Below, piece after piece: positions 7,615 through 54,250 of a DNA stretch of 64,000 nucleotides; positions within the stretch are counted from its first letter, which is position 1, and every line of letters starts with the position of its first letter. The DNA is from Cyanidioschyzon merolae (lineage: Eukaryota), in assembly GCA_000091205.1 (NCBI GenBank), contig AP006488.2; one strand, given 5' to 3'. Position numbers and translations under genes: made by a program. The notes under the pieces are model-generated. The model searched no databases and was not told the origin of the DNA. It worked only from the letters and a program-made list of their open reading frames with translations.

Positions 7615-9796
7615 GACCTCCAGAACGTCTCAAACTACGCACTGTTTACCAGGTAGGGTCAAACGCCCCCACGATCAGGCCCGAAAGACTCTGCCTAAGC
7701 GCTCGTGTTCGGCTCTGCGCTCTCCCGAACGTCGAGCGAATGACCTGTTGCGTAACTGCTGCCGCGGCGGCGGCAGCAGAGGCGAATGATGAGACCCAGC
7801 GCTTACCGAGTGCGCACTATAGGAAAAGGAACAGAAACGAACCTCTAACTAGCAAAGAGATCACATTTTCTTTCCTTCTCTATGATAAACATTAAAAGGG
7901 GGAACATGTTTTCGATATTTTAGAACGTTTACGTTATCGGCGGTAGGTTCCGCGAGCCGGACAAGACTGTCTGGGCTAGTGTATCACGCTCGTCCCGGTG
8001 GCGGGTGCTGTAGTGCGGTCTGAGCTGCAACTCGTCCAAACTGCAGTTTATTCTGGGACTTGATAGATTAGATCTCTTCCGGGTGTCGCCCTCGTTGCGG
8101 TGGACTCCACGTATATCGCTTTGCGCTGTCGCGTGCAGTGGGTTTGTCTGCGGAGCTTGCTGGCTCCGAGAATGATCATATACTCCGACTCTGTGTCAGG
8201 TGAAGCATTCCTCGATCCGACGCCCTCAGTAGTATGGCAACGCCGTTCTGTCTCTGTTATGCATCGGCATCAGCGGATTAGAGGGTAAGGCGGGTGCATC
8301 AACGCATGCACCCGACGAATGACAGGAAGCACGAGACGAGTAGTACATCCGAAAGGAAGTATACGTAATGGAATCTGGAGTTAGAATGCAGCATGATGGA
8401 TGCTTTCGCTGAATCCGATACCCATGCATAGCGCAACCTCGGATCCATTGTCAATGTGAGTGTTTTTCCATCGGAAAAATGAAGCACGTAGCTCTATCGT
8501 ACAAATTGTAACGATGTTCAAGTCGTAGAAAAGTACATTGTTTGTCCTCAATTGTGTTTCAACCTTCACACTAATGTATTCAAGTGCTTTTTCGCGCGTA
8601 ATAGCTGTCCCATCCAAAGCGGTTTCGGTTTTTATATTGAAAAAGGAAAGTTACGGAAGGGGAATTGGAGGATCCTGGGCGCCAGTGTCGCCGGCAGCCC
8701 GAAAAAACGAAGAACAGTGCCAAGTCCAAAGGAACAAGAGAAGAAGAAGAAGAAGAAGAAGTAAAAGCGGGAGGCCCTACGTCAAAGGCTACACAAAAGA
8801 CGACGGTACGACGAGATGGCGGTGAAAGCCTGTCTTCTTCAACATACCAAGGATCCGTACAGGGAAAACGTTCGAGAGGCAATCTGGAACCGTGTCGAGC
8901 CGAACTCAAGCGGTGTCCGTGACGCTTCCCAAGGAATGGCGCATTTCCTAAGGGAATGGTATCACGACGTTACGGACACCAAAACAGTCGAGGTTCTGGA
9001 AGAAATTTTCAACAAAACCTTTATTCATCACCGGATGCTTGGCACCGGGGAAACGTCTAGGTGAAATGAGCGAGTTCATGCCCTCCACAAAATTTACGCC
9101 GAATTCCGCTTCGACGGTACTCGATACAGGGGGGGATTCGAATATTTACACCTACGGGGCGATGAAGTACCTCACCAGTCTAAAGAACCATTTAACAATG
9201 AACCCCAAAAACTTCGATCGCCAGCATGAAAAGGAGATCGAATTCATCGACGAGACGACATCACTCAGGGGCATGAACGAGGATTCCGTCATCCGTACGG
9301 TTATACAAGAGCATCGTGCTGTCTTGGGACTGGCGAATCCAGCAGAAAAGATATCAGAGTGGAAAGAAGATAAGGAACGATACTATCGCCTCATCCTACG
9401 GTATTTCGTGTTTTTTGGCCGAGAACTCGAACGCAAGGCAGAGATGAAGCTGAGTGGGGAAAAAATGAAGAATGGGAGAGACGAAAGGCTGCGCTTCTGG
9501 GTAAGAGCTTAAACATCGTTCCGTTGTGAAACATCAAGTCACATTTTAAGACTATCGACTGCAGAGTCCTTCATGACATCATGAAGGAGATCTGTCCGGA
9601 GTTCGATGAACGGAAGACAGAGTTCACCGCTGAAAACCGGGAGACGTACTTGAAGAGTATCCTCAATTTCAAACGTCTCAAAGTAAGCAAGAAAAAGAAA
9701 TTCACTGGGATGATCGAAACCGATGGAGTATCTATATGTGTACACGATCGGCGGTTGAAGGTGGATCGTCCAGTCCTGCCTTCAGCCTCGCCCGTG

Positions 9797-10106
9797 ACGA
9801 AGCATGAAGGTGAGAAGGAGGCGGATCCTGCGATGCAGGAGTTGGAGGATAACGACCTTGGCGTTGACGTGGCGAAGCATGAAGAAAAGGAGAAGGCTGT
9901 TCCTGTGACTCAGGAGATAGAGCATAACGACCTTGTCGTTGACGTGACGAAGGATGAAGAAAAGAAAGAGGCGGATCCTGTGATGCAGGAGATGGAGGGG
10001 AACGACCTTGTCGTAGGCGCGGCGAATCATGAAGATGAGAAGGAAGCGAATCCTACCACGCAGAAAGCGCATGAGAACGACTTTGTAGTTGGCGCGGACC
10101 CCGGAA
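9797..10106 (+). repeat. Coding minisatellite inside Fanzor-like copy A. About 60 bp (20-aa) unit '[24 protein letters not shown]', roughly 4 tandem copies directly N-terminal to RuvC-I. The unit is a degenerate duplication of the RuvC-I strand.
   Basis: Protein-level tandem repeats 'NDLGVDVAKHEE / NDLVVDVTKDEE / NDLVVGAANHED / NDFVVGADPGSTN'. Copy B has 1 unit and copy D has 3. Confidence 0.7.
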
Positions 10107-10929
10107 GCACAAATATCATAACCATCGCTGCTCCCAAGCTCGCGGAAGATGGTATTGACGGGAACTTGCGTCAGAAATATATGCGTCTTCTGCGGCTCTC
10201 GAGAGCGAGATACTATCGACAATCGGGAATCATGAATGCGAGGAAGAAAATCGTTACGTGGAATGTAGGAATGAAAGAGCACCTGGAAGCTCTGAGTGAG
10301 GTGACGAGCCGAGGAGCGGACTTTCGAGCTTTTCGGTGATTCATGGAAGTTCGCGTTGCGCATTGGGATGCGCTATGGGAGGAGTATACCAAGCCCCGGT
10401 GGGCTCGTCTGCGTATGAATCGATACGGTGGGAAGCAGCGGGCGTTCGCGAATTTTTCAATCAGCCGAGCGCCTTGAAGGAGGATCAAAGTCAGAGGCTC
10501 GTAGTAGCGTATGGGGCACGGAGCTGGAAGACCAAAAAAGGGTGTACGCCAGCTCCAACGACAAGGGTGTACAAGGAGTGCGCACGGCGTTTCGTTACAA
10601 TACCTGTAGATGAGTTTCGAACATTGTATACACACCATGAACTGGGTTGTACACTTCAGCGAGTGGAGATGGAAAAGTGCCACAGGAGCCCTGAGGAAAT
10701 AGCAAAATACGGACCGTTGACGGAGGAGCAAATGGAAAGGAGGGTGAACGTTCGTGGATTACTTGCACTAGTAAGTACAACCAGTGATGGCAAGAAACGT
10801 ATGGAGTTTGTGAATCGTGACTTTAATGCCGCAATCAATGTACGGAGATGTGCGGTGCTGGAGAATAGACTTCCAGAGTCGACAAGAGTGAACTTTGTTG
10901 GACAACCTCTCAAAGTCGAATTATATGAG

Positions 10930-11075
10930 AAAAAGTTGGAAGCAGTCGTAGGTGGCCGGTCGAGAAACGGCGGGAAGGCGTCTGCACATCAGCTGGACAC
11001 GTTATGTCTAGGGCGCGGTTTTCCCGCCACTACGGTACACTGTCGGCGACGTCGTTCGACTTTCGAACGGCGTTT
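10930..11075 (+). ncRNA. Candidate omegaRNA/fRNA-like 3' scaffold of copy A. It is conserved with copy D through a terminal hairpin (cgttcg-acttt-cgaacg, extendable to about 10 bp) and diverges immediately after.
   Basis: A:D nucleotide identity across the C-terminal coding and 3' region ends at about 11075, and a palindrome sits at the boundary. By analogy to TnpB/Fanzor, whose guide RNA derives from the element's 3' end. No expression data. Confidence 0.3.
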
Positions 11076-11086
11076 GGAGGCGCGGC

Positions 11087-11098
11087 TTTGGCGGGAAA
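11087..11098 (+). promoter_or_regulatory. Consensus E2F site TTTGGCGGGAAA about 70 bp upstream of the MCM5 ATG, in the unique flank between the element A 3' end and MCM5.
   Basis: Exact match to the canonical E2F motif TTTSSCGC. MCM5 is a classical E2F target in animals and plants. Confidence 0.35.
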
Positions 11099-11167
11099 CG
11101 CTTGGTGGGCGCTATCTGCTCCAAACGCTCTGTGTTCAACGTCATACGGTTTACGTTTTGACGCTTC

Positions 11168-13474
11168 ATGGATTGGCACGCGGCTCCAGTTTACTATACT
11201 GATCAGGGTGTTGGAGTACCAGGTGCTGAAGAGCAAAGTGGAAATGTTTCTATCCAAGAACGGCGAATCATTGAGTTCTTGCTGCAGTTTCGCTCAGCTC
11301 CAAACGTGTTCCCTTATCGCGATCAGCTTGTGCGCCAGCTGCACGCTCGCAAGCACTGGATTCAGATCAAGATAGAGGACGTGTACGCCTTTGATGAAGA
11401 ACTGGCTGGGTATATTCGCCAAGCGCCTAACGAATGGATAGAGCGCTTGGAGCAAGCAGTCGATCGGGTGGTACGTCGGCTGCGGCTGCCGCTGGACCAC
11501 GAGATAGGCGGTGTTTCGGTGCAGGTGTTGCTGCAGTCCCAGGAGAACGCATTTCCGTTGAGGGAACTCCAGTCCGATCAGCTGGGGCGCCTTGTGCGTG
11601 TACAAGGCATTGTTATTTCCGCTTCAAAAGTACGCGCGAAAGCGCAGGTCGTCTGGTTACGTTGCCAGCACTGTGACTACCGAAAGATGATACGTGCTTC
11701 AGTGGGATTCGGTGGTTTCCAGGTGCCCCGCCAATGCGATCGTGTGACGGAAATGCGTTGCCCTCTGGACTCGTATGAGGTGATGCCGCATGAAAGCGTG
11801 TTTGTTGATCACCAGACAGTGAAGCTGCAGGAGCTGCCCGAGTCGGTACCCACTGGGGAGGTCCCTCGATCGCTCCTGCTCGTTCTCGAGCGGAATCTGA
11901 TTGATAGAGTAGCTCCTGGTGAGCGCGTCAGCGCTGTCGGTGTTTACTCGACATACGCCAGCACTCGTGATCGGAGCAGTCGTTCTGTGGCAGCTAACAT
12001 TGCCACAAGGGCTAGCGGACCAGACCTTGTAGCAGCGGTGAGAACTCCGTATATCCGAGTCCTCGGCATTGATGCTACGCAGGAAAGACGTGACCGTCAT
12101 CCAGGCTTTACCCCGGAGGAAGAGGAAGCCATGCGCAGCTTGAGTCGACTGCCAAACGTGTACGAAGTCTTGGCGGCGAGCATTGCCCCAGAAATCTGGG
12201 GTCTCTCCGATCCAAAACGTGCGGTATTGTGCCAACTATTCGGTGGCTCTCGTAAGACGCTTCCAGACGGAATGAGAATTCGAGGCGATATCAATGTGCT
12301 TCTTCTGGGCGATCCGTCTACCGCAAAATCACAGCTGCTCAAGTTTGCGGAGAAGGTCGCACCGGTCTCCGTGTATACGAGCGGCAAAGGCTCTTCCGCC
12401 GCAGGGCTGACCGCCTCTGTTATTCGAGACGCCACGCATGGTGAATTCCATCTCGAAGGCGGTGCGATGGTGCTAGCTGACGGTGGTATCGTCTGCATTG
12501 ACGAGTTTGACAAGATGCGCCTCGCAGACCGTGTCGCCATCCACGAGGCCATGGAGCAGCAGACCATTTCCATCGCCAAGGCCGGGATCACCACCGTGCT
12601 GAACTCGCGCACGGCAGTTTTGGCGGCAGCGAATCCTCTTTTTGGTTCGTTTGACGATACGCGCACTGTAGCGGATCAGATGGAGTTTGCATCCACGATT
12701 CTTTCTCGTTTCGACCTCATATTTCTGGTCCGCGACGTGCGCAATGATGAACGTGATCGAACGATTGCCCGACATGTACTAGCGCTGCATCAACGGGGCC
12801 ACAGTCTGCGCCCGCAGGGCTCTGGACTCGATTCGGCTGGTGATATCAGCGATTCAGGAATGCTGTCTTTGTCACCGAACGGTGCTAGCGAGTTCACCTC
12901 CAGCCAGATGCTGAACGCCGTTGGTCTTGTCCCGATCGACAAGTTGCGTCGCTATGTCGCCTACGCCAGACGCCGTTGCCGACCACGCCTCTCCGCAGAG
13001 GCTGCTGACCTACTACGAACAGCGTACGTGGCAGTACGCCAGGAGCTGCGCGATCGTACGGCAGATGGACCGACTCCTGTACCGATTGCGGTACGCCAGC
13101 TGGAATCCCTCATCCGCTTGACCGAGGCGTTGGCCAAGATGCGCCTGAGCGATCTTGCATCAGCTGCTGATGCCGAAGAGGCACTGCGGCTTTTCCGAGT
13201 CGCCACCATGGCCGCAGCGCACGCAGGTGCGCTACCTCCTGGTGCCTTTGAGGGTACCCTGAGCGGGGAATTTCTCATTGAGGTTCAAGCAGCCGAAGCA
13301 GCAATTCGGCGGCGCATCGCCATTGGTTCCATGCTCGCTTTGAACCGGCTGGTACGTGAACTCACCCAGCAGCATCTGTCTGCAGCGGCGACCCAGCGGG
13401 CGATCCAGATCATGCTCGGGCGACAGGAGCTCGAATGGCGTCGACAACGGACAGTACTGTGCCGTTTACGGTGA
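11168..13474 (+). CDS. MCM5: DNA replication licensing factor MCM5
   Basis: 768 aa with a true ATG. Walker A 'GDINVLLLGDPSTAKSQLLKF'. 'IDEFDKM' and the arginine-finger region. 'AIHEAMEQQTISIAKAGITTVLNSRTAVLAAANP' nearly identical to MCM5. N-terminus 'PVYYTD...IIEFLLQFR' aligns to the MCM5 N-terminus. Confidence 0.9.
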   Translation: MDWHAAPVYYTDQGVGVPGAEEQSGNVSIQERRIIEFLLQFRSAPNVFPYRDQLVRQLHARKHWIQIKIEDVYAFDEELAGYIRQAPNEWIERLEQAVDRVVRRLRLPLDHEIGGVSVQVLLQSQENAFPLRELQSDQLGRLVRVQGIVISASKVRAKAQVVWLRCQHCDYRKMIRASVGFGGFQVPRQCDRVTEMRCPLDSYEVMPHESVFVDHQTVKLQELPESVPTGEVPRSLLLVLERNLIDRVAPGERVSAVGVYSTYASTRDRSSRSVAANIATRASGPDLVAAVRTPYIRVLGIDATQERRDRHPGFTPEEEEAMRSLSRLPNVYEVLAASIAPEIWGLSDPKRAVLCQLFGGSRKTLPDGMRIRGDINVLLLGDPSTAKSQLLKFAEKVAPVSVYTSGKGSSAAGLTASVIRDATHGEFHLEGGAMVLADGGIVCIDEFDKMRLADRVAIHEAMEQQTISIAKAGITTVLNSRTAVLAAANPLFGSFDDTRTVADQMEFASTILSRFDLIFLVRDVRNDERDRTIARHVLALHQRGHSLRPQGSGLDSAGDISDSGMLSLSPNGASEFTSSQMLNAVGLVPIDKLRRYVAYARRRCRPRLSAEAADLLRTAYVAVRQELRDRTADGPTPVPIAVRQLESLIRLTEALAKMRLSDLASAADAEEALRLFRVATMAAAHAGALPPGAFEGTLSGEFLIEVQAAEAAIRRRIAIGSMLALNRLVRELTQQHLSAAATQRAIQIMLGRQELEWRRQRTVLCRLR

Positions 13475-30555: not shown

Positions 30556-30632
30556 GAGGATGCAAACGGTAGGGGGAAGTGCTGGAACTTTTCCCTCAGT
30601 AGGGATGTTTATGACTTTTTGAATCGAAGTAT

Positions 30633-30985
30633 GGGAATGCTATGTGCAGTGCAAAGATCCGGGCTCATAGATTCGTAGATCGTTGAATGCTATGTGCAGT
30701 GCAAAGATCCGGGCTCATAGATTCGTAGATCGTTGAATGCTATGTGCAGTGCAAAGATCCGGGCTCATAGATTCGTAGATCGTTGAATGCTATGTGCAGT
30801 GCAAAGATCCGGGCTCATAGATTCGTAGATGGTTGAATGCTATGTGCAGTGCAAAGATCCGGGCTCATAGATTCGTAGATGGTTGAATGCTATGTGCAGT
30901 GCAAAGATCCGGGCTCATAGATTCTTAGATGGTTGAATGCTATGTGCAGTGCAAAGATCCGGGCTCATAGATTCTTAGATGGTTC
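30633..30985. repeat. 50-bp tandem repeat, 7 copies (tgaatgctatgtgcagtgcaaagatccgggctcatagattcgtagatcgt), with terminal variants. It lies 80-430 bp upstream of the GatB ATG.
   Basis: Direct reading shows near-identical units. The last three carry 'ggt' or 'ctta' variants. Confidence 0.9.
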
Positions 30986-33567
30986 AAGGATTTACGATTG
31001 TGTCTGCGGACAAGCGCTTTCGACGCGTTGCTGCTGGCAGCGTTGACCTGGTCGGCATCAACATGCTTGGCGACACCCTCGAACAAGCGCTGGTAAAACT
31101 TCCGAACGCATGATCCAAGTGAATGCGTACATGGCTTTGCGGCGCTCTGTTCCTTCGATATACGGTCCTGGAATCAGGTATTCTTCCAGTTTTCGATTAT
31201 TCCGTTTCACGAGGACTCGTGAGGTACAGGTATTCGCGACGCGGGATGGACGAGGAAACATATTCAGCATGGTCTTTTGAGCGCTATTTCACGAGCTTGT
31301 TCAGAAATCTTCTCGACATTCCCTTTTTGCATCAGCGATCCAGTTTGGGAGAATTTCGTGCGTCTCTCTGTGGTGATCGATGAAACCGCATTTCACATGA
31401 GCAGCTGGATATCTCTAAAAGGATACGAGCCCAGAGATTTCCGTGGCTTTTGATTGTGCGGAAACGGGTCCTGGGTACGGGCTTGAATCATCCCAGCGAT
31501 CATATTAAGTGACGCGTCCGATACGATTTGCATAAAGGACGCGGATACGGATGAACGAATTCCGACTTGCTTTCCAGTTCGACAGTTCTTTTCGAAAATT
31601 CTTCCATGATAGGTAGCATCTCGTTTTAAAATGCTGTATTGAAGCGAATAGCATGCGGCTTCGCGTGCCTTGCAGAGAGCACTTTTCGAAAGGCTAGCCC
31701 CGAACAAGCTGGTGTTCGAGGGGTACAGCCCCAGGCGCTGCTCCTGGAGATTTCATCAAGGCGCGTCTTCTGTGGCCGTCATGGGCATCAGCCAAACGAT
31801 GCAGCAAGCGTCCACGCGTCGTAGAGCATCCAATGGAGGTTAAGGATAGGTGAACACATCGGTATACCTGCATTCAGTCACGGGTTATCAATACGAGGCG
31901 TGCGCCGAACTTGTATACGTAGACGACGACATTGCCTGGGAAAACGCAGATCGCAACGAATGTCCTTTTCCCGTGATATGCATCGGCAATAGTTGAGAAT
32001 TCCTAAAATCGACACGTGAATCTTTGCACCAACAGCTTCCGACTGCTCGTTACAGACCGAGATGAGAACTGGAGACCGCTGTATCTAAATTATGAGGTAC
32101 GAGAGAAAAATGAAAAAGCTGAAGACAAAGAACGACATGGATGATTTTGATCACTGCAGGAAGATGCTCAAACATCACTGTATCCGTATGAGCCAAGATG
32201 CGCTGTTCCCATTTCATTCTGAAGTCGGTTTAGCATTGCGGAGAGCGCATGAGACACGCTCTATATGTGGATGATCGCTCGATCAAGAGCAGGGTCTTTT
32301 ATGAAAAACTTGCACCATCTTTGTGGAATACCTTTGCACGCGAATTGTGCAGAGCATTTTGTTTTGCGTTCATCGGTATGATTCCGCTCTTCCTCGATGG
32401 AACACCATTTCAGAATATTCAGATCCTGAGCGCATGTCCGGAGATTTTATTATATTCTTCTGCAGACCAGAAGCTGTTGTACTTCAAAGGCTTTCGGAGA
32501 GATTCCGAACCCTTCAAACGAGCACGGGACGGCGCCGACTGCCGTTCGTCTGCGAATACCCATGCAAAACGCAACCCGAGAAACGCGCCAACAACCTGCA
32601 CGCGACGGAACCGCAGTTCGACGCCGCAGCGAACTGCACCATCTCAAGGCAGTGCAGGCGAGCCCTGCTCTGAGCAAATCAAACCTGGAATCCCGAGCCG
32701 AAGCCCGCATTGGTATAGCAAAGCCGCTCTGTCTCCGGTTTGCATCCGCAGCGGCGCTATTGGTGCTACCGCAGACGCTCACGGCGGGCTCGTCGCACGA
32801 TAGCGTGTAAAACATAACCACTGCATCCGAGCCAAGTACATGGAGTCTAAATTGAATATAGGTGGAACAGTGGATGCTTTTCTAATCGCTGATATTCAGG
32901 GCCCAATCGGGGATGCCTGGTCCATGTAAACTGTCCGTCAAGCGAGGAATCCCACCGACAAGCCGCATAATAAGAGGCGACAATCGAGCTGCACTGCCAC
33001 TGAACGTACGAAAGTGCGCTAAAAACTCCAGTGCGCATGTCGTAGCCTTCAAAGCCGCTTGATGCGTCGATTCTGCGGGAATCCGCCGGGTCACCGCGCG
33101 CTTTCAGGACTCGGGACACGTATGACCCGTACCAGTCGATGGGTTGCTCATCAGCGCTCATCCACATCGGCCTAGAATAGACAAGTGTACCTTGACTACG
33201 CTCAGCACAACACGGCTTGCCTGAAAAAGTCAGAAGCGGCACTGGTCCTGGTACGTGCTCGCTGTGTGCTCTTGAGCGACCACCAGTCATGCAACTGCGC
33301 AAAGTATGCGTACGGAGCGCAGCGAATCCATTCAGCTTGTGCTGTAAACTAGATGCGTCCAGAGCTTCGCGCCACACGAAGCCTTTTCCGGGCCAAAACC
33401 AGCAACGATGCCATCTCGTGTTGCATGCGATAAACTGGGGCGTGCTGCTTCACAGCGCGTACAAATCGAGTTCGTGTATACGCCGGTCTACCTGCAAGCG
33501 AACAGCAGCTGACCAAGCACGCCCTACCCTGTGCCGTACGGGATTCGCATTATTCGCAGGCATTCGG

Positions 33568-38627: not shown

Positions 38628-38851
38628 CACGAACACTTCTCGAAGTACAAGTGCTCAAAGCGCTTTCGAACCCAGACCCCCAAAAAGGACGATACCACAA
38701 ACGTGGTCGCTATTCGCAAACCGCCCAGAAACGTCACAGGCAACGAGCGTTCAGGTCTTTCTGGCAGGTTTCCGTACCGCGCAGGGACAACCGTCGTAAC
38801 ACCTTGCGCAGCGCGCCGCATATCGAGGCGATTGCACCTGCGCGCGCGAAA

Positions 38852-39200
38852 ACGTATACACGGATACGTATACACGGATACGTATACACGGATACGTATA
38901 CACGGATACGTATACACGGATACGTATACACGGATACGTATACACGCATACGTATACACGGATAAGTATACACGGATACGTATACACGGATACGTATACA
39001 CGGATAAGTATACACGGATACGTATACACGGATACGTATACACGGATAAGTATACACGGATAAGTATACACGGATAAGTATACACGGATACGTATACACG
39101 GATACGTATACACGGATACGTATACACGGATAAGTATACACGGATACGTATACACGGATAAGTATACACGCATACGTACACACGGATATGCATATATACA
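38852..39200. repeat. 14-bp minisatellite (ACGGATACGTATAC with AAG/GCA variants), about 25 copies, 200 bp upstream of the Rab1 ATG.
   Basis: Direct reading. It generates the multi-frame artifact ORFs 38627-39269. Confidence 0.9.
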
Positions 39201-42200
39201 CATCAAATGCCCACAGATCGAGAAGCGGCACAGGGGCGCTGTTGGAAACCGAAGAGAGCGCCTACCCATGGGCTATAGAGCGTGGCGTGCGCGATGACAT
39301 GCTGCCGGCCTGCGACGGCATGCTGGTTGAGTTTCATTGACAAGGTGGAATGTAGGAAAGCAACATTATATCCGAGAGGACGTATGGGTCATGGAACTTG
39401 ACGGTGGCGTCATGAATGATATGCGCTTTCTCGAATGTCGATGTTGATCGTGCAATTTAGGATTCTTCGTGTGTGCACACGTTCAGTTCAGTAAACGACA
39501 ACATAGATCGTTGGTGCAAACTCATCTGTAGAAGCAGCGATGGCGACGATCTTCTTCATGATGCGCGTACGGCGTATGCGATTCGACGTCAGTGCATCCG
39601 CGTGAATATCAAATGGAACGGGGCGCGATCACAGGGGCTCGCAGACGAGTCTTTGGGCACGGTATGCTTCCAGCGTCAATCATAAAGGACTTTGGGGTTT
39701 GCTTTTCCGCTTTCATGTATCCGGTTTTCGATAGGCTGGCCTTTGTTATTCCACCGGTGCTGCGCTCAGTAGTTGTGGGATGATGATAGCAATATTCAAG
39801 TCAAGATTTGGTAGTTTTCTGTTGTTTCATGCGCATGCGAAGCACAAGCAAAAGTTGCAACCTAGGCATCGCTTGCCCGATAAAGCTCGTTTACATAAAG
39901 CCTCGGAGCGCACATCGCAGGCGCGGCACATGGCTGTGTTCAAGCGTTCCAGTACGTCCACTGAACCTGCTCGTCCTCTGAGTACCGCCCTGTGGCGCTT
40001 GTAGGCCTGCTTCATCGCTCAGGGCATGGCCTTGGCGTGTACACGGAAACGATATTAAACGCTCTCGCCCGTTGGTGCCCCCGAAGCGTGCTGTATCCTT
40101 CGTTGGCGATCATCTTTTCGGTTATCTCCGCGGCAAGTACGCTGTCCGCTGCACGCGCAAGCGCATGTTGCTCCAACCGAACAGTTACCATGGGCTCTGT
40201 GATCGAGCTTCATTTTGCTGCATACGCTGCTGGTAAAAAGTGGCGACGGGCGCAAGCGGTGTCGTGTCCGCATCTTGCACCCGCCAGCAACCATGCGGCT
40301 ACGGCTTCTGAGGCGCCCCTCAGTTCTGTCCGCCATCTGTTAGAACCAGTCTCCCGTTTGTTCTCCTCTGCTGCGACGAAGATGAAACACTCGTGAGTAG
40401 AGCATATGACTATTGGTAAAGGTCGCAGGGTTCCGAACTCGTTGCTCCAGAGCGTCAACGGTTACCACACGAGAACTGAACTGCTGTTCGGATCGCACCG
40501 AAACGTGTCGCGAGCGGTTCGCTCGCCACAGGTCCAGCACGATGCATATCGCTCTGTGGCACTCGTTCGGCAGGTGACGCGACATTTTTGATCATCCTTC
40601 GTCTGTAGATCTCCTATTCCGAGCCTATTTGCCAATGAGATTAAAGTTGGTCACAAAGTTCATAAGACGTTCGCCTTCGATGTCGATGGATACCGCTAAG
40701 CGATCGAACGCGATGCACGGCATGACGGCTCGTTGCCATGATGCAAGCCTGTCGTTGCTGCCTTGCTTGTTCGAATGAGCTTCTTTCTTTGCCGTCTGGC
40801 GGTTTCTCTTCCTACCCTTCATAGATAATCGCTCGTTCGTGAGATCCTCCTGCTTCTGAGCCCTACATGGGCGCCCGTTATGACGCCTGTGCACCGGTCG
40901 CGTCAACGTTCTGCGCGCGCCCTCTGTGGCTTCCAAGTCCGCAACAGGTCGCTGGATCTATCAGGGTCCAAATACCTGCTGGCGGAAGACCCCGAATTGA
41001 GGCTCCTGAGCTTTGTAAAAAAGTGTGCAATGGAGACGACCTCTCTCTCCAAGTGAGCAGCAGCCTCGGCGTATATAGAAGATTCTGGTTTGCATCACGG
41101 ATCCGGCACCATTCATAATGCTTTCTGACGGCACTTGAATGGGTATCGCACGGGATTGCACTCAGAAGGACGTGCACTATGGAATGCTCTGAGTCCTGCT
41201 ATTGTCTGTATGCCTCTGTATTGTTTCGCGCTGAACAATACTTGTGATGCACGACTTTTTTGGCAGAACTGAATCGATCTGAATTGCTTTCTTATCGACC
41301 ATTTCATCAATGAACGGCAATGAGTCACACCATATGCACCCCGCAGTGCTGCCTGCCTTGATGCATGCCATTCGGACAAAGGGTCGGACAAGGACGCCTC
41401 CCCGGGGAAGCAGTATCAACTCGTCCGAGCACCTCTGCGAGACGCTCGGATGCGCGATGCGGACACACGGTCTGCATTGCTGACGGACGACGAAGCCCCA
41501 GCGGTATTGACGGGAGTTATGCAGTCCATCGTATCTCAATTGTTGCTTTGGTACAGTGGCGCTCTAACAAGGACCGAGTTCGTTCATCGTAATCGACCTC
41601 ACAACAGGGTCACCAGTGCGGTCCAGTCGATGCCGCACTCTCTGGACACGAATCGATCTGCAGGATGGGGTGTTGGCGCTCGTACGGCTTCTTCTCGGGC
41701 ACTGCTTTGAGGAGCAATGCCTGCCGTGCGTACCGTCTTGCCGAGTCCGTCTGCTGGCAACCTGGAGCTTGTGATTGCCGCATCGCCAGATGCGTCACCC
41801 GGTGTACGCCTGTCCAACGGATATTTTTACGGAAGCAGCCTAAAGCACCGGGATCGCCGACACCGACGCCCCCTTCCCTCTTGTATCCCCCCGCTTGGCG
41901 TCCCGGGCCCGCTGGACGCGCTCAACGCCAACAAAAGCCGACCCGTGCTCCCTGCTGCAGTGTACTCCGGGCGACGAGTCCGTGAACCGCAACCAAGTCT
42001 CGGTTTAAAAGCACTGCATCACCAACGGCTCCTGCCTCGCCGTGTGTTCCATGAACGCCTCGCGAGACGCTGAGAGGTATCGCAACTCGTTTCGTGCATG
42101 CGCAGAATCTTTCCTCCGCGTTCAAGCGCTTCAGTCTACGAGCTCGCCAGCGCAGCACAAACCGCCAGAGATGCTCGGTACCGTCCACTCAATCCCCAGG

Positions 42201-45594: not shown

Positions 45595-48250
45595 AGTCGC
45601 GCCGGTGTTGAATGACCACCGCACGTCTTTCAAAGGAGAAACGTTGCCGCCGTCGGTATACAGTAGAAGCGAGGAACACGCTCTAGACAAAAAGTCTCCA
45701 ACTGATGTGCAGACGCCTCCCAGTCTTTCTGGACCGGGCACCCACTACAGCTTTCAACCTTGTCTCATATGGTTCTACATTGAGAGGTTGTCCAACAAAA
45801 TTCCCTCTTGTTGACTCTGAAGGTCTCGTCTCCATCACCGCGCATCTCCTTATATTGATAGCGGCGTTAAAGTCTCTGTTCACAAACTCCATACGTTTCT
45901 TGTCATTGATTGTACTTACTGATGCAAGTAGCCCTCGCACTTTCGCCCTCCTTTGCATTTGCTCTTCCGTCCGCGGTGCGTGCTTTTTTATATCTTCAGG
46001 GCTCCGCTGGCACTTTTCCATATCGACCCTTTGAAGTGTACACCCCCGTTCATGGTGTGTATACGATGTTCGGAACTTACCGACAGGTATTGTAACATAC
46101 CGGTGTGCGCACTCCTCGTACGCTCTTGTCGTTGGAGCCGGTCTACACACATTTTTGGGTCTTCCATCGCCCTGCTCCGCAGGCTACTACGAGCCCTCGA
46201 GCCTTGTCCTCTTTGAGGGCACTCAACTGATTGAAAAAGTTCACGAATACACGCTGCTTACCACAATACAGATTCATTCGCAGACGAGCCCGCCGGGGCT
46301 TGGTATACTCCTCCCACAACGGATCCGAATGGGCAACACGAACTTCCATGGATTTCCGAAAAACTCCACAGTCCGCGCCTCGGCGCGTCACCTCGCTCAA
46401 AGCTTCCAGGTGATCCTTCATTCCTGCATTCCACGTACCTATTTTCTTCCTCGCATTCATTATACTGGATTCTCGATAGTATCTCGTTCTCGGGAACCTC
46501 AAAAGACGCATGTCTTTCTGACGTAAACTACCATCAGTACCATTTTCCGAACGCTTCGGTGCTGCGATTCTTATGATATACGTATTCCGAGGGTCCGCGC
46601 CAACGCCAAAGTCGTTATCCTGCACTTTCTGTGTCGCACGATCCGCCTCCTTCACATCTTCATGGTTCGCCGAGGACGGACCAGGACGATCTCTCTTCAA
46701 CCGCGGATAGAGTACACACATGGCTACTCCATCGGTTTCGATGATCCCAGTGAACAACTTTTGCTTGCTCACTTTGAGAAGTTTGAAATCGAAGTTGTTC
46801 TTCCAGTGCGTCTCCTGGGTATCACCGGTGAACTCTGTCTTCCTTACGATGAACTCTGGACTGATCTCCCTCATGATGCCGTAAAGGACGCCGGAGTCGA
46901 TAGTCACAAAATGTGACTTGATGTTGCATATTGGAACCCCGTTGAAGCGCTTCCCCATTAGAAAAGCCTTCCGTCTCTCCCACTCTTCATTTTTTTCCTC
47001 ACTCAGCTTCACCTCTGCCTTGCGTTCGAGCCCTCGGTCCAGAGACACGAAATACAGCAGAATGAGGCGATAGTATCTTTCCTTATCTTTTTTTCAACTC
47101 TGATATCTTGTCGGTTTGGTTCGCCAACCCCAAGACTGCATGGTGCTCTTCTATAAGCACACGGATTACAGAAGCTATATTCGTTCCCCTGTGTGACGCC
47201 TTCTTGTCGACAAATTCGATCTCATCTTCATGTTGCGATCGTTCATGATGCCGTTGATAATCGCCCATATTTCTTTGCGAGAGATGTTCGGGTACAGTGC
47301 AAACACGGCGCGTACCATAAAACGTTCGAGATTCAAAGTCAAATGGCTCTTCAGGTTCGTGATGTACTTTATCGCCCCGTATGTGTACATATGCGAGTCA
47401 CCCTTGTATCGATTACACTCAAAGCTGCAAAAGGGATGTTTTTCGTGGAGAGCATGCACCCGATCATTTTTCCTTCACGTCCCCGCTGTACCAAGCATCA
47501 TGTGACGAATAAACGTCTTGTCGAAGAACTCGCCCGGAATCTCGACGGTTGCCATGTGCGTCACGTTTTCGTACATCTCCCTCGCCCAATGCATCAGTCC
47601 TGACGAAGCCTTGACAATACTCTTGGAGTACGAGTCGACGCAGTTTTCGATAGCGTCTCGCAGCTTTTCCCTGTAGGGATCCTTGATTTGTCCAAGAAGA
47701 GAGGTTTTCACCACTATCTCGTGGTACAGTTGTCGTTCTTGCAGCCTTCGACATAGGGCCTTCCCCTTTGCTTCTTTTTCTCTTCCTTTTCTTCTGGACT
47801 CGGCACTGTATTTGTTTCTCCGGCAGCCGGCGACAATGGCGCTCCAGGATCGTGGACTTGCTTTTTCATAGCTTTCCTTTTTTGGGGTTTTTCGAAAAAG
47901 AACGCTCTTTGAACCCTTCTGTTATATACTGCGAAAAAGCACTTGACTAGACATGTTTGAGGGCTGAAACACAAATGAACTGAAAAATTGTACTTTGCTT
48001 CGACTCCAACGCAAATACAACTTTTTCCGGTAGAACAACACGTCAACGAATGGTCAGGACTACGTTTCTCTTCCACTGTGAAAAGCGCGTTGTATTTCAT
48101 GCCTTTCAAATATGGAGGTGCACAACTCGACAGAATTATTTAGAACAAAGAACAGATACTCACGATACACGACAAACGATGTAACGATTTCATTCCCCCT
48201 CTACGCTAAACGTTGACAGGGGAAGAAGCTTTCCGCATGTTAGAATGTTT
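45595..48250 (-). mobile_element. Fanzor/TnpB-like element copy B (degenerate, at least 4 frame breaks). Its 3' end lies about 190 bp upstream of the PepN start.
   Basis: Homologous to A and D over the leader, coding region and 3' tail. Its 3'-tail hairpin is degraded. Confidence 0.55.
45683..47869 (-). pseudogene. Fanzor/TnpB-like nuclease pseudogene (copy B). Pieces: 47714-48109, 47475-47714, 47175-47459, 47083-47268, 46143-47048, 45683-46150.
   Basis: RuvC-I '[18 protein letters not shown]'. RuvC-III 'RMEFVNRDFNAAINIRRCAV'. Copy-specific frame breaks. Confidence 0.6.
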
Positions 48251-48419
48251 GCGCTCCAGGCGGAAGGCCCCGTGAGCCGGACGAGTCTTCTTGGTAATTG
48301 CGTCATGGCCCCCCCAGTGGCAGGTGCTTTAGTGATATCTGACCAACTCATCCCCGAAGCGGTTTATTCCGGCATTAAGGGTGCTCAGGCAGCGTCTGCA
48401 CGTCGCCCTGGTCGCAGCG

Positions 48420-49235
48420 CATTCGATGGTACGCCAACGCTGTTCTGTCTCTGTACAGCATCCGCTCCAGCGGTACAAGCGCTGCGGCGGGTGCTCACTG
48501 CAGGCTCGGCGCACGAACGAACGCACAAATCGACCAGTCTAGCGGAAAGGGAGTCTAAGTAATGGAACCTGGAAGTAGGGTGCACCATGATGGGCGCTTT
48601 CCCGAAAGCCGATATCCATCCCGCAATCCGTGATCCACGGTCAACGGATAGGTTTTCTCAGGCCAGAAAAAGAACAAGACACGACGCTCGTGCCGCCGTT
48701 CAAGGGAAACGCCATCCTGATCAATAGCGTGTTGTTCAGCTGTGAAAGTCAGACTTCCGTTCAGGCCGTAGCCAAGCACAGTCTTTCAGTTCCTGTTTGT
48801 TTCGAACTTCAAACAAGTCTAGTCAAGTGTTTTGTCGCAGTATGTAACAGAAGCGTTCACAGAGCGTTCTTTCCAAAAAAACAAAAAAAGAATAGTTATG
48901 AAAAAGCAAGTCGACGATCCTGGAGGCCCAGGATCGCCGGCTGCCAGAAAAAAACAAAAAACATTGCCGAGTCCAGTAGAAAAGGAAGAGAAAAAAAGCA
49001 AAGGGGGAGGCCCTATGTCGATCGCGGCAACAAAGTCGACTGTACAACGGGATGGTGGTGAAAGCCTGTCTTCTTACACATCTCAAAGATCCGTACAAGG
49101 AAAAGTTGCGAGACGCTATCAGAAACCATGTCGACTCGTACTCCAAGAGTATTGTAAAGGCGTCTTCCGGACTGATGCATTGGGCGAGGGAGATGTACGA
49201 AGACGTGACGCACATGGAAACAGTCGAGACAATAT
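48420..49235 (+). mobile_element. Fanzor/TnpB-like element copy C: 5' fragment only (leader plus the first roughly 110 codons), head-to-head with copy B.
   Basis: ATG at about 48897 'MKKQVDDPGGPGSPAARKK...RGRPYV...MVVKACLLTHLKDPYKEKLRDAI...VTHMETVE'. Homology is lost after about 49235. Confidence 0.5.
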
Positions 49236-51294: not shown

Positions 51295-54250
51295 AGCGCC
51301 GCCTCACGCACCATCAACGCCGTTCGAAAGTCGAACGACGCCAACGGCGTACAGTAGTGGCGAACGCGCCCCAGACAAGAAGACGCCATTTGACGTACAG
51401 ACGCTCCACGTCTTTCTGGACCGGCCACGCACTACAGCTTCCAACTTTTTCTCATGTAGTTCGACTTTGAGAGGTTGTCCAACAAAATTCCCTCTTGTTG
51501 ACTCTGAAGGTCTCGTCTCCATCACCGCGCATCTCCTTATATTGATAGCGGCGTTAAAGTCTCTGTTCACAAACTCCATACGTTTCTTGTCATTGATTGT
51601 ACTTACTGATGCAAGTAGCCCTCGCACTTTCGCCCTCCTTTGCATTTGCTCTTCCGTCCGCGGTGCGTGCTTTTTTATATCTTCAGGGCTCCGCTGGCAC
51701 TTTTCCATATCGACCCTTTGAAGTGTACACCCCCGTTCATGGTGTGTATACGATGTTCGGAACTTACCGACAGGTATTGTAACATACCGGTGTGCGCACT
51801 CCTCGTACGCTCTTGTCGTTGGAGCCGGTGTACACACTTTTTGGGTCTTCCATCGCCCTGCTCCGCAGGCTACTACGAGCCCTCGAGCCTTGTCCTCTTT
51901 GAGGGCACTCAACTGATTGAAAAAGTTCACGAATACACGCTGCTTACCACAATACAGATTCATTCGCAGACGAGCCCGCCGGGGCTTGGTATACTCCTCC
52001 CACAACGGATCCGAATGGGCAACACGAACTTCCATGGATTTCCGAAAAACTCCACAGTCCGCGCCTCGGCTCGTCACCTCGCTCAAAGCTTCCAGGTGAT
52101 CCTTCATTCCTGCATTCCATGTACCTATTTTGTTCCTCGCATTCGTTATGCCAGATTCTCTACAGTATCTCGTTCTCGGGAACCTCAAAAGGCGCATGTC
52201 TTTCTGACGTAAACTACCATCAGTACCATTTTCCGAACGCTTCGGTGCTGCGATTCTTATGATATTTGTGTGTGTAGGGTCAGTGCCAACGACATGGTCG
52301 TTATCCTGCACTTTCTGTGTCGCAGGATCCTCCTCTTTGTATTCTTCATGCTCCGCCGCGTCAACGACAAGGTCGTTATCCTCCACTTCCTGCGTCGCAG
52401 GATCCGCCTCTTTCTCAACTTCATGCTTCGCCGTGCCAACGACAAGGTCGTTATCCTCCACATTCTTCGTCTCAGTATCCGCCCGATCCTTTTCTTCACC
52501 CTTCGAGAGGAACGAAGCCGAGGGCGGAACTGGACGATCATTCTTCAGCCGCCCGATAATGTACACACAAGGCTACTCCATCGGTTTCGATCATCCCATT
52601 GAATACCTTTTGTTTGCTGACTTTGAGCCGTTTGAAATCGAAGACACTCTTCCAGTACGTGTCCCGGTTTCTCGCCGGTGAAGTCCTCCCTGCTGACAAT
52701 GTACTCCGGACTGATCTCCTTCATAATGCCGTGAAGGATTCTGGGGACGATAGTCACGAAATATGCCTTGCTATTGCACATGGGAACCACGTCGAAACGC
52801 TTTCGCATTAGGACAGCCTTCCGTCTCTCCGACTCTTCATTTTTTCCCTCACTCAGCTTCACCTCTGCCTTGCGTTCGAGTTCACGGTCCAGAAACACGG
52901 AATACCGCAGAATGAGGCGATAGTATCTTTCCTTATCTTTTTTCAGCTCTGGTACCCTGTTTGTTGGATTCGCCAACCCCAGTACCGCACGGTGCTCTTG
53001 TATACCCGCACGGAATACAGAAGCTTCATTCGCGCTCTCGTTTGACTCCTTCTTGTCCACGAATTCGACCTCATCTTCATGCTTGCGATCGTTCGTGATG
53101 TCGTTGATAATCGCCAATTTTCCATTACAAGAGATGCCCGGGTACAGCGCAAAGACGGCACGTGTCATGAAACGTTCGAGGTTCATCGTCAAATGGTTCA
53201 TCAGTTCCGTGAGCTACTTCATCGCTCCGTATGCATAAATATCCTGGTCACCCCTGCTTCGAGTACCCTCGAACCTGTAAAAGGGATGTTCTTCGTGGAG
53301 GGCGTGAATCCGCTATTTTCACTCCGTGTTTCCCCTGTGCCAAGCATTAGGTTACGAATAAAGGTCTTGTCGAAAAACTCGTCCGGAACCGCGACTGTTT
53401 CCATGTGCGTCACGTTTTCGTTCATCTTCATCACCAAATGCATTAGCCCTGACGACGCCTTTCTAATACTCATGGAGTACGAATCGACACGATTTCTGAT
53501 GGCGTCTCGCAATTTTTCCTCGTACGTATCCGTGATATGTCCGAAAAGACAGGCTATCACCACCGTATCGTCGTACATTCGTCTTTCTTGCGGCCCCTGA
53601 CTTCGGGCCTCCTGCCGTTTCTTTCTTGTCCTCTCCTTTTCCTCTGGACTAGACACTGCTTTTTGCTTTTCTCTGGCAGCCGGCGACACTTGGCGAACAG
53701 GATCTCTGACTTGCATATCCATAGCTTCTCCTTGGATTATTCATTTTTTCAATATAAACGCACTCCGATGCTCCTGCTGAAAACTGCGAAAAAGCATTCG
53801 ATGACGCTCACCTGAAGTTGGAACTAAAGTGAGATGATAGTCCATGAGTAGAAAGAGCAGGTTTGCCAGCAGGAGGACGCGGATTATGAATCATTTCATT
53901 AATAGACCCCCAACGTGGGGGCAGATCTACACTCATTTCTGAAAAAACGAGGACCGACCCTCTAAATCGGGAGAAAAGACTAGGCTTTGGGTCGCTTCTC
54001 ACTTTCGTCAATACCAGTCTTGAGGGGCATGATGTTTGACTACTTCCCTTGTCTCTCTCATATGCGCCTGTAGCAACGCAGAATTCTCTTGTCCCTCTAG
54101 CTCCGTTTTCAGAAGTAGAAGGATGTTGATGGCAGTGTCAAAGCCACCATTTCACTGCTTCCGGCTGCTGCTCACGCACTTAATGCTCGAACGGGAGATG
54201 CGATCTATGCTTTGCTTGCCATTTGCGTCTTCCTCGCGTAAAGTCGCGGT
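51295..54250 (-). mobile_element. Fanzor/TnpB-like element copy D (best preserved; about 2 frame breaks). Its 3' end lies about 80 bp upstream of the LPAAT start.
   Basis: Longest intact segment: ORF 51304-52566 spans RuvC-I to RuvC-III. Leader homology to A and B extends to at least 54020. Confidence 0.6.
51304..53722 (-). pseudogene. Fanzor/TnpB-like nuclease, likely a pseudogene (copy D). Pieces: 53219-53722, 52545-53201, 51304-52566.
   Basis: RuvC-I '[17 protein letters not shown]'. Zn-finger-like 'YEECAHRYVTIPVGKFRTSYTHHERGC..MEKCQRS'. RuvC-III 'RMEFVNRDFNAAINIRRCAV'. The RuvC-II position reads 'GLVVACGAGRWK'. Confidence 0.6.

Follow-up and report, generated by a model that had tools for sequence, protein, structure and literature searches.

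A conserved stem-loop at the right end of the Cyanidioschyzon merolae Fanzor1 element CMe-1A: a candidate guide-RNA scaffold that may also mark the end of the mobile unit

Characterised relatives of the element treated here, the CMe-1A repeat in a 64,000-nucleotide stretch of the Cyanidioschyzon merolae genome (assembly GCA_000091205.1, contig AP006488.2; this whole stretch is called the window), are SpuFz1, PpFz1 and GtFz1. They share protein fold and family with the CMe-1A nuclease, and their RNA expression, ribonucleoprotein formation and cleavage activity have been demonstrated (Saito 2023, PMC10432273; Xu 2024, PMC11423790). The guide RNA (ωRNA) of SpuFz1 has a 75-nt scaffold that lies between stop codon and right end of the element, followed by a guide of 14-15 nt. 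The solved Fanzor1 ωRNAs contain a 7-bp stem-loop, SL1, to which SpuFz1 and PpFz1 add a single further stem-loop adjoining the guide (PMC10432273, PMC11423790). CMe-1A resembles these systems in having a conserved non-coding tail that extends from the stop codon to the right end, carries one or two stem-loops, and is followed by variable sequence. As in the Fanzor1 ωRNAs, a short hairpin comes first and a terminal stem-loop second. The two differ in their ends, because the SpuFz1 elements have 30-nt inverted repeats and a scaffold that spans the right one, whereas CMe-1A has no terminal inverted repeats (TIRs) and carries a long end hairpin.

CMe-1A was described as a Fanzor1 family of the C. 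merolae genome with about 150 copies of about 3 kb, each about 80% identical to the consensus, and some of them were reported to be intact (Bao & Jurka 2013, PMC3627910). No TIRs were found in it, its target site duplications (TSDs) could not be determined, and its 5′ 635 bp also form a separate element, TE-N2_CMe, with about 70 copies (PMC3627910). The authors, who defined Helitron2, left the family unclassified, and their paper describes no end hairpins, stem-loop covariation, right terminus position or ωRNA for it (PMC3627910). The element in the window is CMe-1A, as judged against this published description and not against the Repbase consensus, because the C. merolae host, the unit of about 3 kb, the Fanzor1 open reading frame (ORF), the copies of about 80% identity, the lack of TIRs and the 5′ TE-N2 part (a module of about 635-680 bp that also stands alone) all match; nothing was found that contradicts membership. 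The Fanzor1 family, the host genome and the ωRNA principle were all known before.

Self-comparison of the window defined four copies of one repeat, A to D (Table 1). The MCM5 gene (11168-13474) starts 94 nt downstream of copy A; it and the MCM5 of C. merolae 10D are 100% identical. With about 80% identity, copies A and D remain alignable past the end of the ORF, as the original prediction had it, and their homology runs to 11074 in A and 51316 in D. Copy C can be aligned through the same right-end region, but its palindrome has diverged. The palindrome said to be common to A and D was recovered as an exact 24-mer, GTCGTTCGACTTTCGAACGGCGTT, at 11051-11074 on the plus strand in A and at 51316-51339 on the minus strand in D. 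It occurs twice in the window and appeared in none of 100 dinucleotide-preserving shuffles.

The right end was delimited with 80 loci that contain relatives of the ORF, obtained from a metagenome scan of hot-spring samples. Merging the same site across samples left 32 independent insertion sites, whose tails were aligned with MAFFT. The blastn alignments of the 80 loci to the copy A tail mostly stop at A 11074-11077, and the mean pairwise identity among the 32 sites, which is 0.8-0.87 in the ORF and 0.56-0.85 in the tail, falls to 0.29 at 11078-11097 and to 0.13-0.24 further out. The stop codon stands at one column in 26 of the 32 copies (TAG in 23 and TAA in 3). Read from this alignment, the ancestral stop is the TAG at 11009-11011 of copy A, and the non-coding tail measures 63 nt up to the sequence GCGTT, plus about 8-12 nt. 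It had been pointed out that the nuclease ORFs extend into this tail and do so in different frames, which is true of three copies; the ORFs that read on past the ancestral stop are frameshift products. Around 10963 the window has GGTCGAGAAACGG, compared with GGTCCA-AAACGG in two other samples of the same locus (L081/L082), and the frameshift at the end of the copy A ORF is therefore polymorphic between strains.

The bases that follow GCGTT proved to be part of the element's structure. They had been described as unrelated between copies, and the border between scaffold and guide had been placed immediately after the hairpin. In the 32 sites, the first 11 nt or so after GCGTT contain 12% A and 40% G, compared with 21-26% for each farther out, and a GGYG or GYGG motif lies within positions +1 to +14 in 24 of 32 sites, whereas two distal control windows each have it in 3 of 32. 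Subfamilies have 5-14 nt in common after GCGTT (GATGGTGC, TGGTGYGG, TGTTTCCAGGGGT and CGCTAGCAGCGG). Folding indicated base pairing of the 5-12 nt that follow GCGTT with the 5-9 nt that directly precede the hairpin, which results in an imperfect stem-loop of 40-45 nt, and the border as originally drawn falls inside it. The flanks become copy-specific only beyond this G/T-rich stretch of 5-14 nt that pairs back into the stem-loop. Because the bases after GCGTT belong to the lower stem, the guide would start about 8-14 nt farther out (at about 11087 in A and about 51308 in D), a boundary that we infer from the end of the lower stem together with the end of the subfamily-shared bases.

At the three sites for which both flanks were available (L023, L047 and L058), no TSD was found between the left and right flanks. 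In a search for empty sites, two other samples with an identical MCM5 gene both carried copy A, whereas at the MCM5 locus of Cyanidiococcus the upstream genes differed and the intergenic DNA could not be aligned. There (L083, Cyanidiococcus yangmingshanensis), MCM5 shows 82% identity, and synteny extends to the symplekin gene downstream of it. On the upstream side, a zf-CCCH gene and a 2152-aa ORF take the place of Sec23 and Fanzor, so neither the insertion nor the upstream synteny is shared.

The hairpin itself is real and is larger than the 6-bp core, extendable to about 10 bp, that was first proposed: the upper stem of copy A alone has 11 bp (11049-11073, with one G·U pair) and is continued by a lower stem, and the stem of copy D has 19 bp. 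For counting pairs, the arms of the upper stem were anchored by sequence and not by fold, since MAFFT sets the two hairpin variants out of register. With arms anchored in this way, 229 of 256 cells pair, a total that includes four mis-anchored copies (L018, L022a, L051 and L058). A perfect stem is present in two subfamilies that differ in sequence, CGTCGTTC...GAACGGCG in one and CGTCTTTC...GAAAGACG in the other. Between the subfamilies, one pair changes from G-C to U-A; a change from U·G to U-A is seen at another pair; within the second subfamily, one pair passes from C-G through U·G to U-A; and in one locus (L005) a G-C pair of the upper stem is replaced by A-U. Compensatory changes were observed at 3-4 of 8 pairs, and the two apical pairs are often lost.

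The stability of the stem-loop depends on the strand. The mean fold energy is -18.1 kcal/mol for the sense strand, compared with -11.3 kcal/mol for the antisense strand, and G·U pairs make up 103 of 493 pairs in the sense folds, compared with 17 of 383 in the antisense folds. With RNA parameters, the whole stem-loop is the centroid structure in A, D and C; with DNA parameters, the centroid retains just the upper 11-bp stem in A and D and almost nothing in the decayed copy C. In the lower stem, a copy's own post-hairpin bases contribute -7.5 kcal/mol and its own distal flank -4.65 kcal/mol. When partners were permuted among copies, the value was -6.36±0.42, and 24 of 5000 permutations were as good as the true partners; on the antisense strand no effect of the own partner was seen (892 of 5000). 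Because of the compensatory changes, the many G·U pairs and the stability on the sense strand only, the evidence on the stem-loop favours a sense-strand RNA, short of proof.

A tail placed directly after a stop codon, specific to the sense strand and stable as RNA would also fit an ordinary element of the 3′ untranslated region of the Fanzor mRNA, acting in 3′-end formation, termination or stability with no role in guiding or transposition. This explanation is very improbable: its position matches the end of the mobile unit exactly at 32 independent sites, a similar hairpin seems to end a non-coding element (see below), and no T-run or other terminator feature follows the hairpin.

The RuvC motifs GADPGSTN, VDEFRT and NRDFNAA can be read in the copy A translations, and the catalytic columns D398, E569 and D636, in the order RuvC-I, RuvC-II and RuvC-III, are invariant in a family alignment of 70 sequences. 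A profile built from these 70 members matched the Fanzor1 chains 9cf0 of Parasitella (E 8.7e-17) and 8gkh of Spizellomyces (E 2.4e-10) in the PDB; PDB searches with a single sequence and with a 10-sequence profile were negative, and only the 70-sequence profile reached the Fanzor1 structures. An AlphaFold2 model of P0106, an intact relative with 48% identity to the ORF of copy D, had a mean predicted local distance difference test score (pLDDT) of 89.7; a model made with just 10 sequences (pLDDT 40) was unusable. In Foldseek, SpuFz, PpFz and GtFz were the top 7 PDB matches of the P0106 model (E about 1e-15 to 2e-17), and its alignment to SpuFz gave template modelling scores of 0.65/0.72 (E 2e-17), at a protein identity to the solved Fanzor1 chains of only 11-15%. 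Pfam gave only a faint match to Cas12f1-like_TNB (E 3.2, at NRDFNAA) for the window ORFs and the intact relatives, and the NCBIfam search returned nothing. Because of the profile matches, the fold match of the P0106 model and the invariant D/E/D columns, the assignment to Fanzor1 is sound.

Reading the tail as a guide-RNA scaffold is the best single explanation of the tail as a whole, and we would give it about an even chance of being correct. Of the architecture claimed originally, the Fanzor1 nuclease, the conserved tail and the stem-loop at the end fit, as does a flank that turns copy-specific farther out; the border had to be moved, and the lack of covariation over the whole tail, the pseudogene state of the copies and the TE-N2-like hairpin count against it. 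In active ancestors, a sense transcript of the tail, probably including a few dozen bases from the 3′ end of the ORF, would have formed the ωRNA scaffold, and the terminal stem-loop would be the stem adjoining the guide. The guide would be copied from the 15-20 nt of host DNA past the element end, after which Fanzor could cut insertion sites that lack the element. It is also probable that this hairpin marked the end for the enzyme that moved the element. Transcription, Fanzor binding and guide use are steps that we infer. Upstream of the stem-loop, the copies share the invariant motif GCCACTACTGTAC, and the short GGCG/CGCC hairpin (Table 1) shows a single compensatory change, from G-C to A-U at its outermost pair.

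Several observations weigh against this reading. The window contains no intact nuclease ORF, every copy being frameshifted or truncated, and there was none among the 80 related loci, the longest ORF of which has 629 aa and lacks the N-terminus. The RuvC-II glutamate is lost in copies C and D (VGKF, compared with VDEF in A). All four window copies, with their broken nuclease genes, are relics. In the identity profile of the 32 sites, the tail is not conserved above the coding region. RNAalifold found only 3 pairs (GCG/CGC) in the 32-copy alignment, and a four-helix model of the whole tail showed covariation not above that of column shuffles; these negative results arise partly because MAFFT misregisters the two hairpin variants. 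Covariation across the copies, which had been put forward as a check on the scaffold, is present as compensatory changes in the terminal stem-loop and was not recovered for the whole tail. The permutation of lower-stem partners ignores the relatedness of the copies, and kinship may contribute to its outcome. A long-range helix between CAGTAGT (in the coding sequence for EAVV) and ACTACTG was rejected, as it showed only wobble-type single changes at about the chance rate and no compensatory change. A helix internal to the ORF, CGTCTGCA/TGGAGACG, was likewise rejected for showing no covariation. The terminal stem-loop is supported as a structure, and the rest of the tail is not.

That all copies are decayed pseudogenes, that the global covariation test was negative and that conservation in the tail does not exceed that in the ORF would also fit a palindrome that persists by descent as a neutral relic with no function. 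We consider there to be hardly any likelihood of this, as two subfamilies hold a perfect stem through the compensatory changes described above, the copies' own lower-stem partners surpass permuted ones, and the asymmetry between sense and antisense strands is strong.

The rival that has to be taken most seriously concerns DNA. The left end of the short-form element (loci L002-L065) is a palindrome, ATCGCGCTCGGTGAGCGCACC, and one of the same kind opens the TE-N2-like module (7800-7818). This module recurs at many loci, lying against the left end of Fanzor in one orientation or the other, and is missing from other related loci; its consensus contains no ORF and so no transposase. At its right end, the module has a T/A-rich hairpin that by eye is like the stem of the second subfamily and that folds in 4-5 of 7 hand-picked copies. 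Its stems vary by copy (CGTTTT/AAAACG, TTTTTCC/GGAAAAA and TTTTCT/AGAAAA), and the rest of the Fanzor tail is missing from it. As this element without an ORF appears to carry a similar hairpin, the hairpin may also, or equally, be a DNA transposition signal, which is a further point against a purely RNA-level role.

In its strict form, this alternative holds that the stem-loop is only a DNA-level cis signal, read on one strand by an HUH-type transposase (IS200/IS605-like or Helitron-like) or another transposase supplied in trans, and has no role in a guide RNA. We regard it as possible, although on balance doubtful. It would account for an element without TIRs or detectable TSDs, for the palindrome at the left end and its counterpart in the TE-N2-like element, for an element end that lies 5-14 nt past the upper stem, as in the right ends of IS200/IS605 elements and Helitrons, for several 5′-truncated copies with an intact 3′ end, and for the breaks inside the hairpin in several copies. 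It leaves unexplained the roughly 40 nt of conserved non-coding tail that precede the hairpin, among them an invariant 13-mer, all of which TE-N2 lacks; the lower stem relies on G·U pairs and drops from the centroid under DNA parameters; the ends differ from the Helitron pattern of 5′-TC and CTRR-3′; and neither the element nor TE-N2 showed an HUH or Y1 transposase, with no genome-wide search having been made. Since both roles coexist in bacteria, an ωRNA role would remain compatible with a DNA signal. The stem-loop may signal transposition, form a stem in an RNA or do both, and a dual or purely DNA-level role is a serious alternative to the scaffold reading. Membership in Helitron or Helitron2 was considered separately and rejected: Helitrons start with TC (or T) and have a hairpin about 10-12 nt from the 3′ end, and the position of the CMe-1A hairpin is similar, but the ends read ...GATGGTGC, ...TGGTGYGG or ...CCAGGGGT, and not CTRR.

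The junctions of the related loci were recorded alongside. Left-end junctions are mosaic. Homology ends just before the hairpin, or inside its 5′ arm or loop, at L002, L003, L004, L030/L045, L021, L033, L035 and L065, a pattern that would suit breakage or recombination at the hairpin of those loci. At L007, L022, L024 and L027 there are inverted-duplication junctions, in which a minus-strand 3′ half (A 10041-11042) abuts a plus-strand copy that begins at A 9782.

In elements of the IS200/IS605 group, hairpins are present at both ends, the element ends a few bases past the hairpin, the bases flanking the hairpin foot on one side are complementary to those on the other, and the right-end region also encodes the ωRNA scaffold. 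CMe-1A is similar to the tnpB-only elements of this group in having subterminal hairpins at both ends, no TIRs and no TSDs, and a nuclease gene that reads towards the right end, and the bases 5′ of its hairpin foot are complementary to those 3′ of it. Complementarity of this kind on the two sides of the hairpin foot is also used by the IS200/IS605 transposases on single-stranded DNA, which counts against the scaffold reading. Unlike these elements, CMe-1A has a eukaryotic host and a much longer stem-loop, and neither the element nor TE-N2, the two that were searched, yielded a Y1 TnpA; the likeness is one of architecture. By analogy, CMe-1A and TE-N2 could be hairpin-ended eukaryotic elements, free of TIRs and TSDs, that still work like IS200/IS605, with one strand-specific right-end stem-loop serving both in transposition and as the last stem of the guide RNA, and with the bases flanking its foot specifying the end. 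This is a speculative and rather improbable proposal.

Intact relatives provided a further comparison. Fanzor1 genes of 676-702 aa, with 45-48% identity to the copy D ORF, occur intact in brine and other metagenomes (L084-L093; P0117, P0241 and P0242). Unlike CMe-1A, the relatives at L084-L087, L091 and L092 (5 of 7 distinct element types or contigs) have a gene for a DDE_3 (Tc1/mariner-like) transposase upstream. Identical P0117 elements are located in at least four different flanks, and recent activity of the brine relatives is suggested. The brine relatives have a common 183-nt tail that ends in a TIR-like ...GAGTATA, and their tails give a consensus fold with compensatory changes at 15 of 43 predicted pairs, a count from four sequences only. 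The structured tails of intact relatives indicate that the clade does carry structured 3′ tails, though not ones homologous in sequence to that of CMe-1A: the local alignment scores between the CMe-1A tail and the relatives' tails were within the shuffled distribution, and this too speaks against the scaffold reading. A layout seen by eye as shared with the intact relatives, hairpin-ACTGTA-CACCGTTGG, failed the shuffle test and was not used.

Other features of the window were noted in passing. The Fanzor gene contains tandem coding repeats of 75 nt (25 aa) at 9793-10092 in A, 52287-52511 in D and 46601-46675 in C; their number varies from 4 (A) to 3 (D) to 1 (C), and it also varies among the metagenome homologues. 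At 9204-9215, about 80-90 nt that are present in nearly all related loci are missing from copy A, which could be due to a deletion in A or to a variable intron-like segment in the others. Copies C (minus strand) and B (plus strand) are arranged head-to-head with a single TE-N2-like module between them, and copy D lies 2 kb beyond. There are also unrelated tandem-repeat arrays at 38777-39266 (14-nt period, about 35 units), 30585-31037 (50-nt period, about 9 units) and 61241-61893 (ACACCG-type, 6/12-nt period). A scan of the whole window against Rfam at gathering scores gave 0 matches, and a tRNA scan of the window found nothing.

Table 1. Positions of the CMe-1A copies, associated modules and right-end structures in the window
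Feature	Position	Strand	Details	Basis or stability
Copy A	~8483-11074	+	preceded by a second repeat, 7797-8482	self-comparison
Copy A Fanzor1 pseudogene	8653-11011	+	start equivalent ACG at 8653; ancestral stop TAG 11009-11011	ORF list, alignment
Copy A ORF pieces	9039-9512, 9581-10339, 10336-11202	+		ORF list
Proximal non-coding tail of copy A	11012-11041	+	short hairpin GGCG (11012-11015)/CGCC (11025-11028); near-invariant GCCACTACGGTAC at 11026-11038	
Copy A terminal stem-loop	11042-11086	+	upper stem 11049-11059/11063-11073, loop CTT; lower stem 11042-11047 with 11080-11086	RNA -24.2 kcal/mol, z -2.65
Copy-specific flank of A, candidate guide source	11087-11106	+	conservation at background; start may shift by a few nt	
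TE-N2-like non-coding module U, fused 5′ of copy A	7797-8482	+	left palindrome GCGC..GCGC 7800-7818; T/A-rich hairpin 8464-8480	
Copy B, 5′ fragment without 3′ tail	48677-49229	+		self-comparison
TE-N2-like module plus 5′ fragment of copy B	48188-49229	+	module 48188-48644, B 48677-49229; head-to-head with copy C	
Copy C	45640-48072	-		self-comparison
Copy C Fanzor1 pseudogene	45683-48072	-	ancestral stop TAG kept at 45685-45683; RuvC-II VGKF	
Copy C terminal stem-loop	45614-45654	-	variant 2 type, ACGTTTCTC..GAAAGACGT, with partial decay; same site as L077	RNA -17.5 kcal/mol, z -2.35
Copy D	51316-53796	-		self-comparison
Copy D Fanzor1 pseudogene	51371-53722	-	ATG at 53722; stop equivalent mutated to TGG at 51373-51371; RuvC-II VGKF	
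Copy D terminal stem-loop	51309-51349	-	19-bp helix; 24-nt motif 51339-51316	RNA -28.3 kcal/mol, z -5.05, 0/200 shuffles

The practical importance of the window on its own is small, as no copy in it is alive and neither family nor principle is new. Fanzor guide RNAs have been experimentally defined in only a few species, and about 150 copies of the family are present in C. merolae, a model alga that has almost no introns and is genetically tractable. The defined right end and the candidate scaffold provide a testable construct, consisting of the last 110 nt or so of the element and 20 nt of flank. The more interesting side is the IS200/IS605-like ends of an unclassified eukaryotic transposon. 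If the hairpin-ended architecture without TIRs is real, it would offer a way to learn how a Fanzor element is mobilised when no transposase can be recognised. If CMe-1A and TE-N2 do work like IS200/IS605, they would represent a eukaryotic survivor of the ancestral coupling between TnpB and its transposon, and a family listed as 'unknown' since 2013 would be classified.

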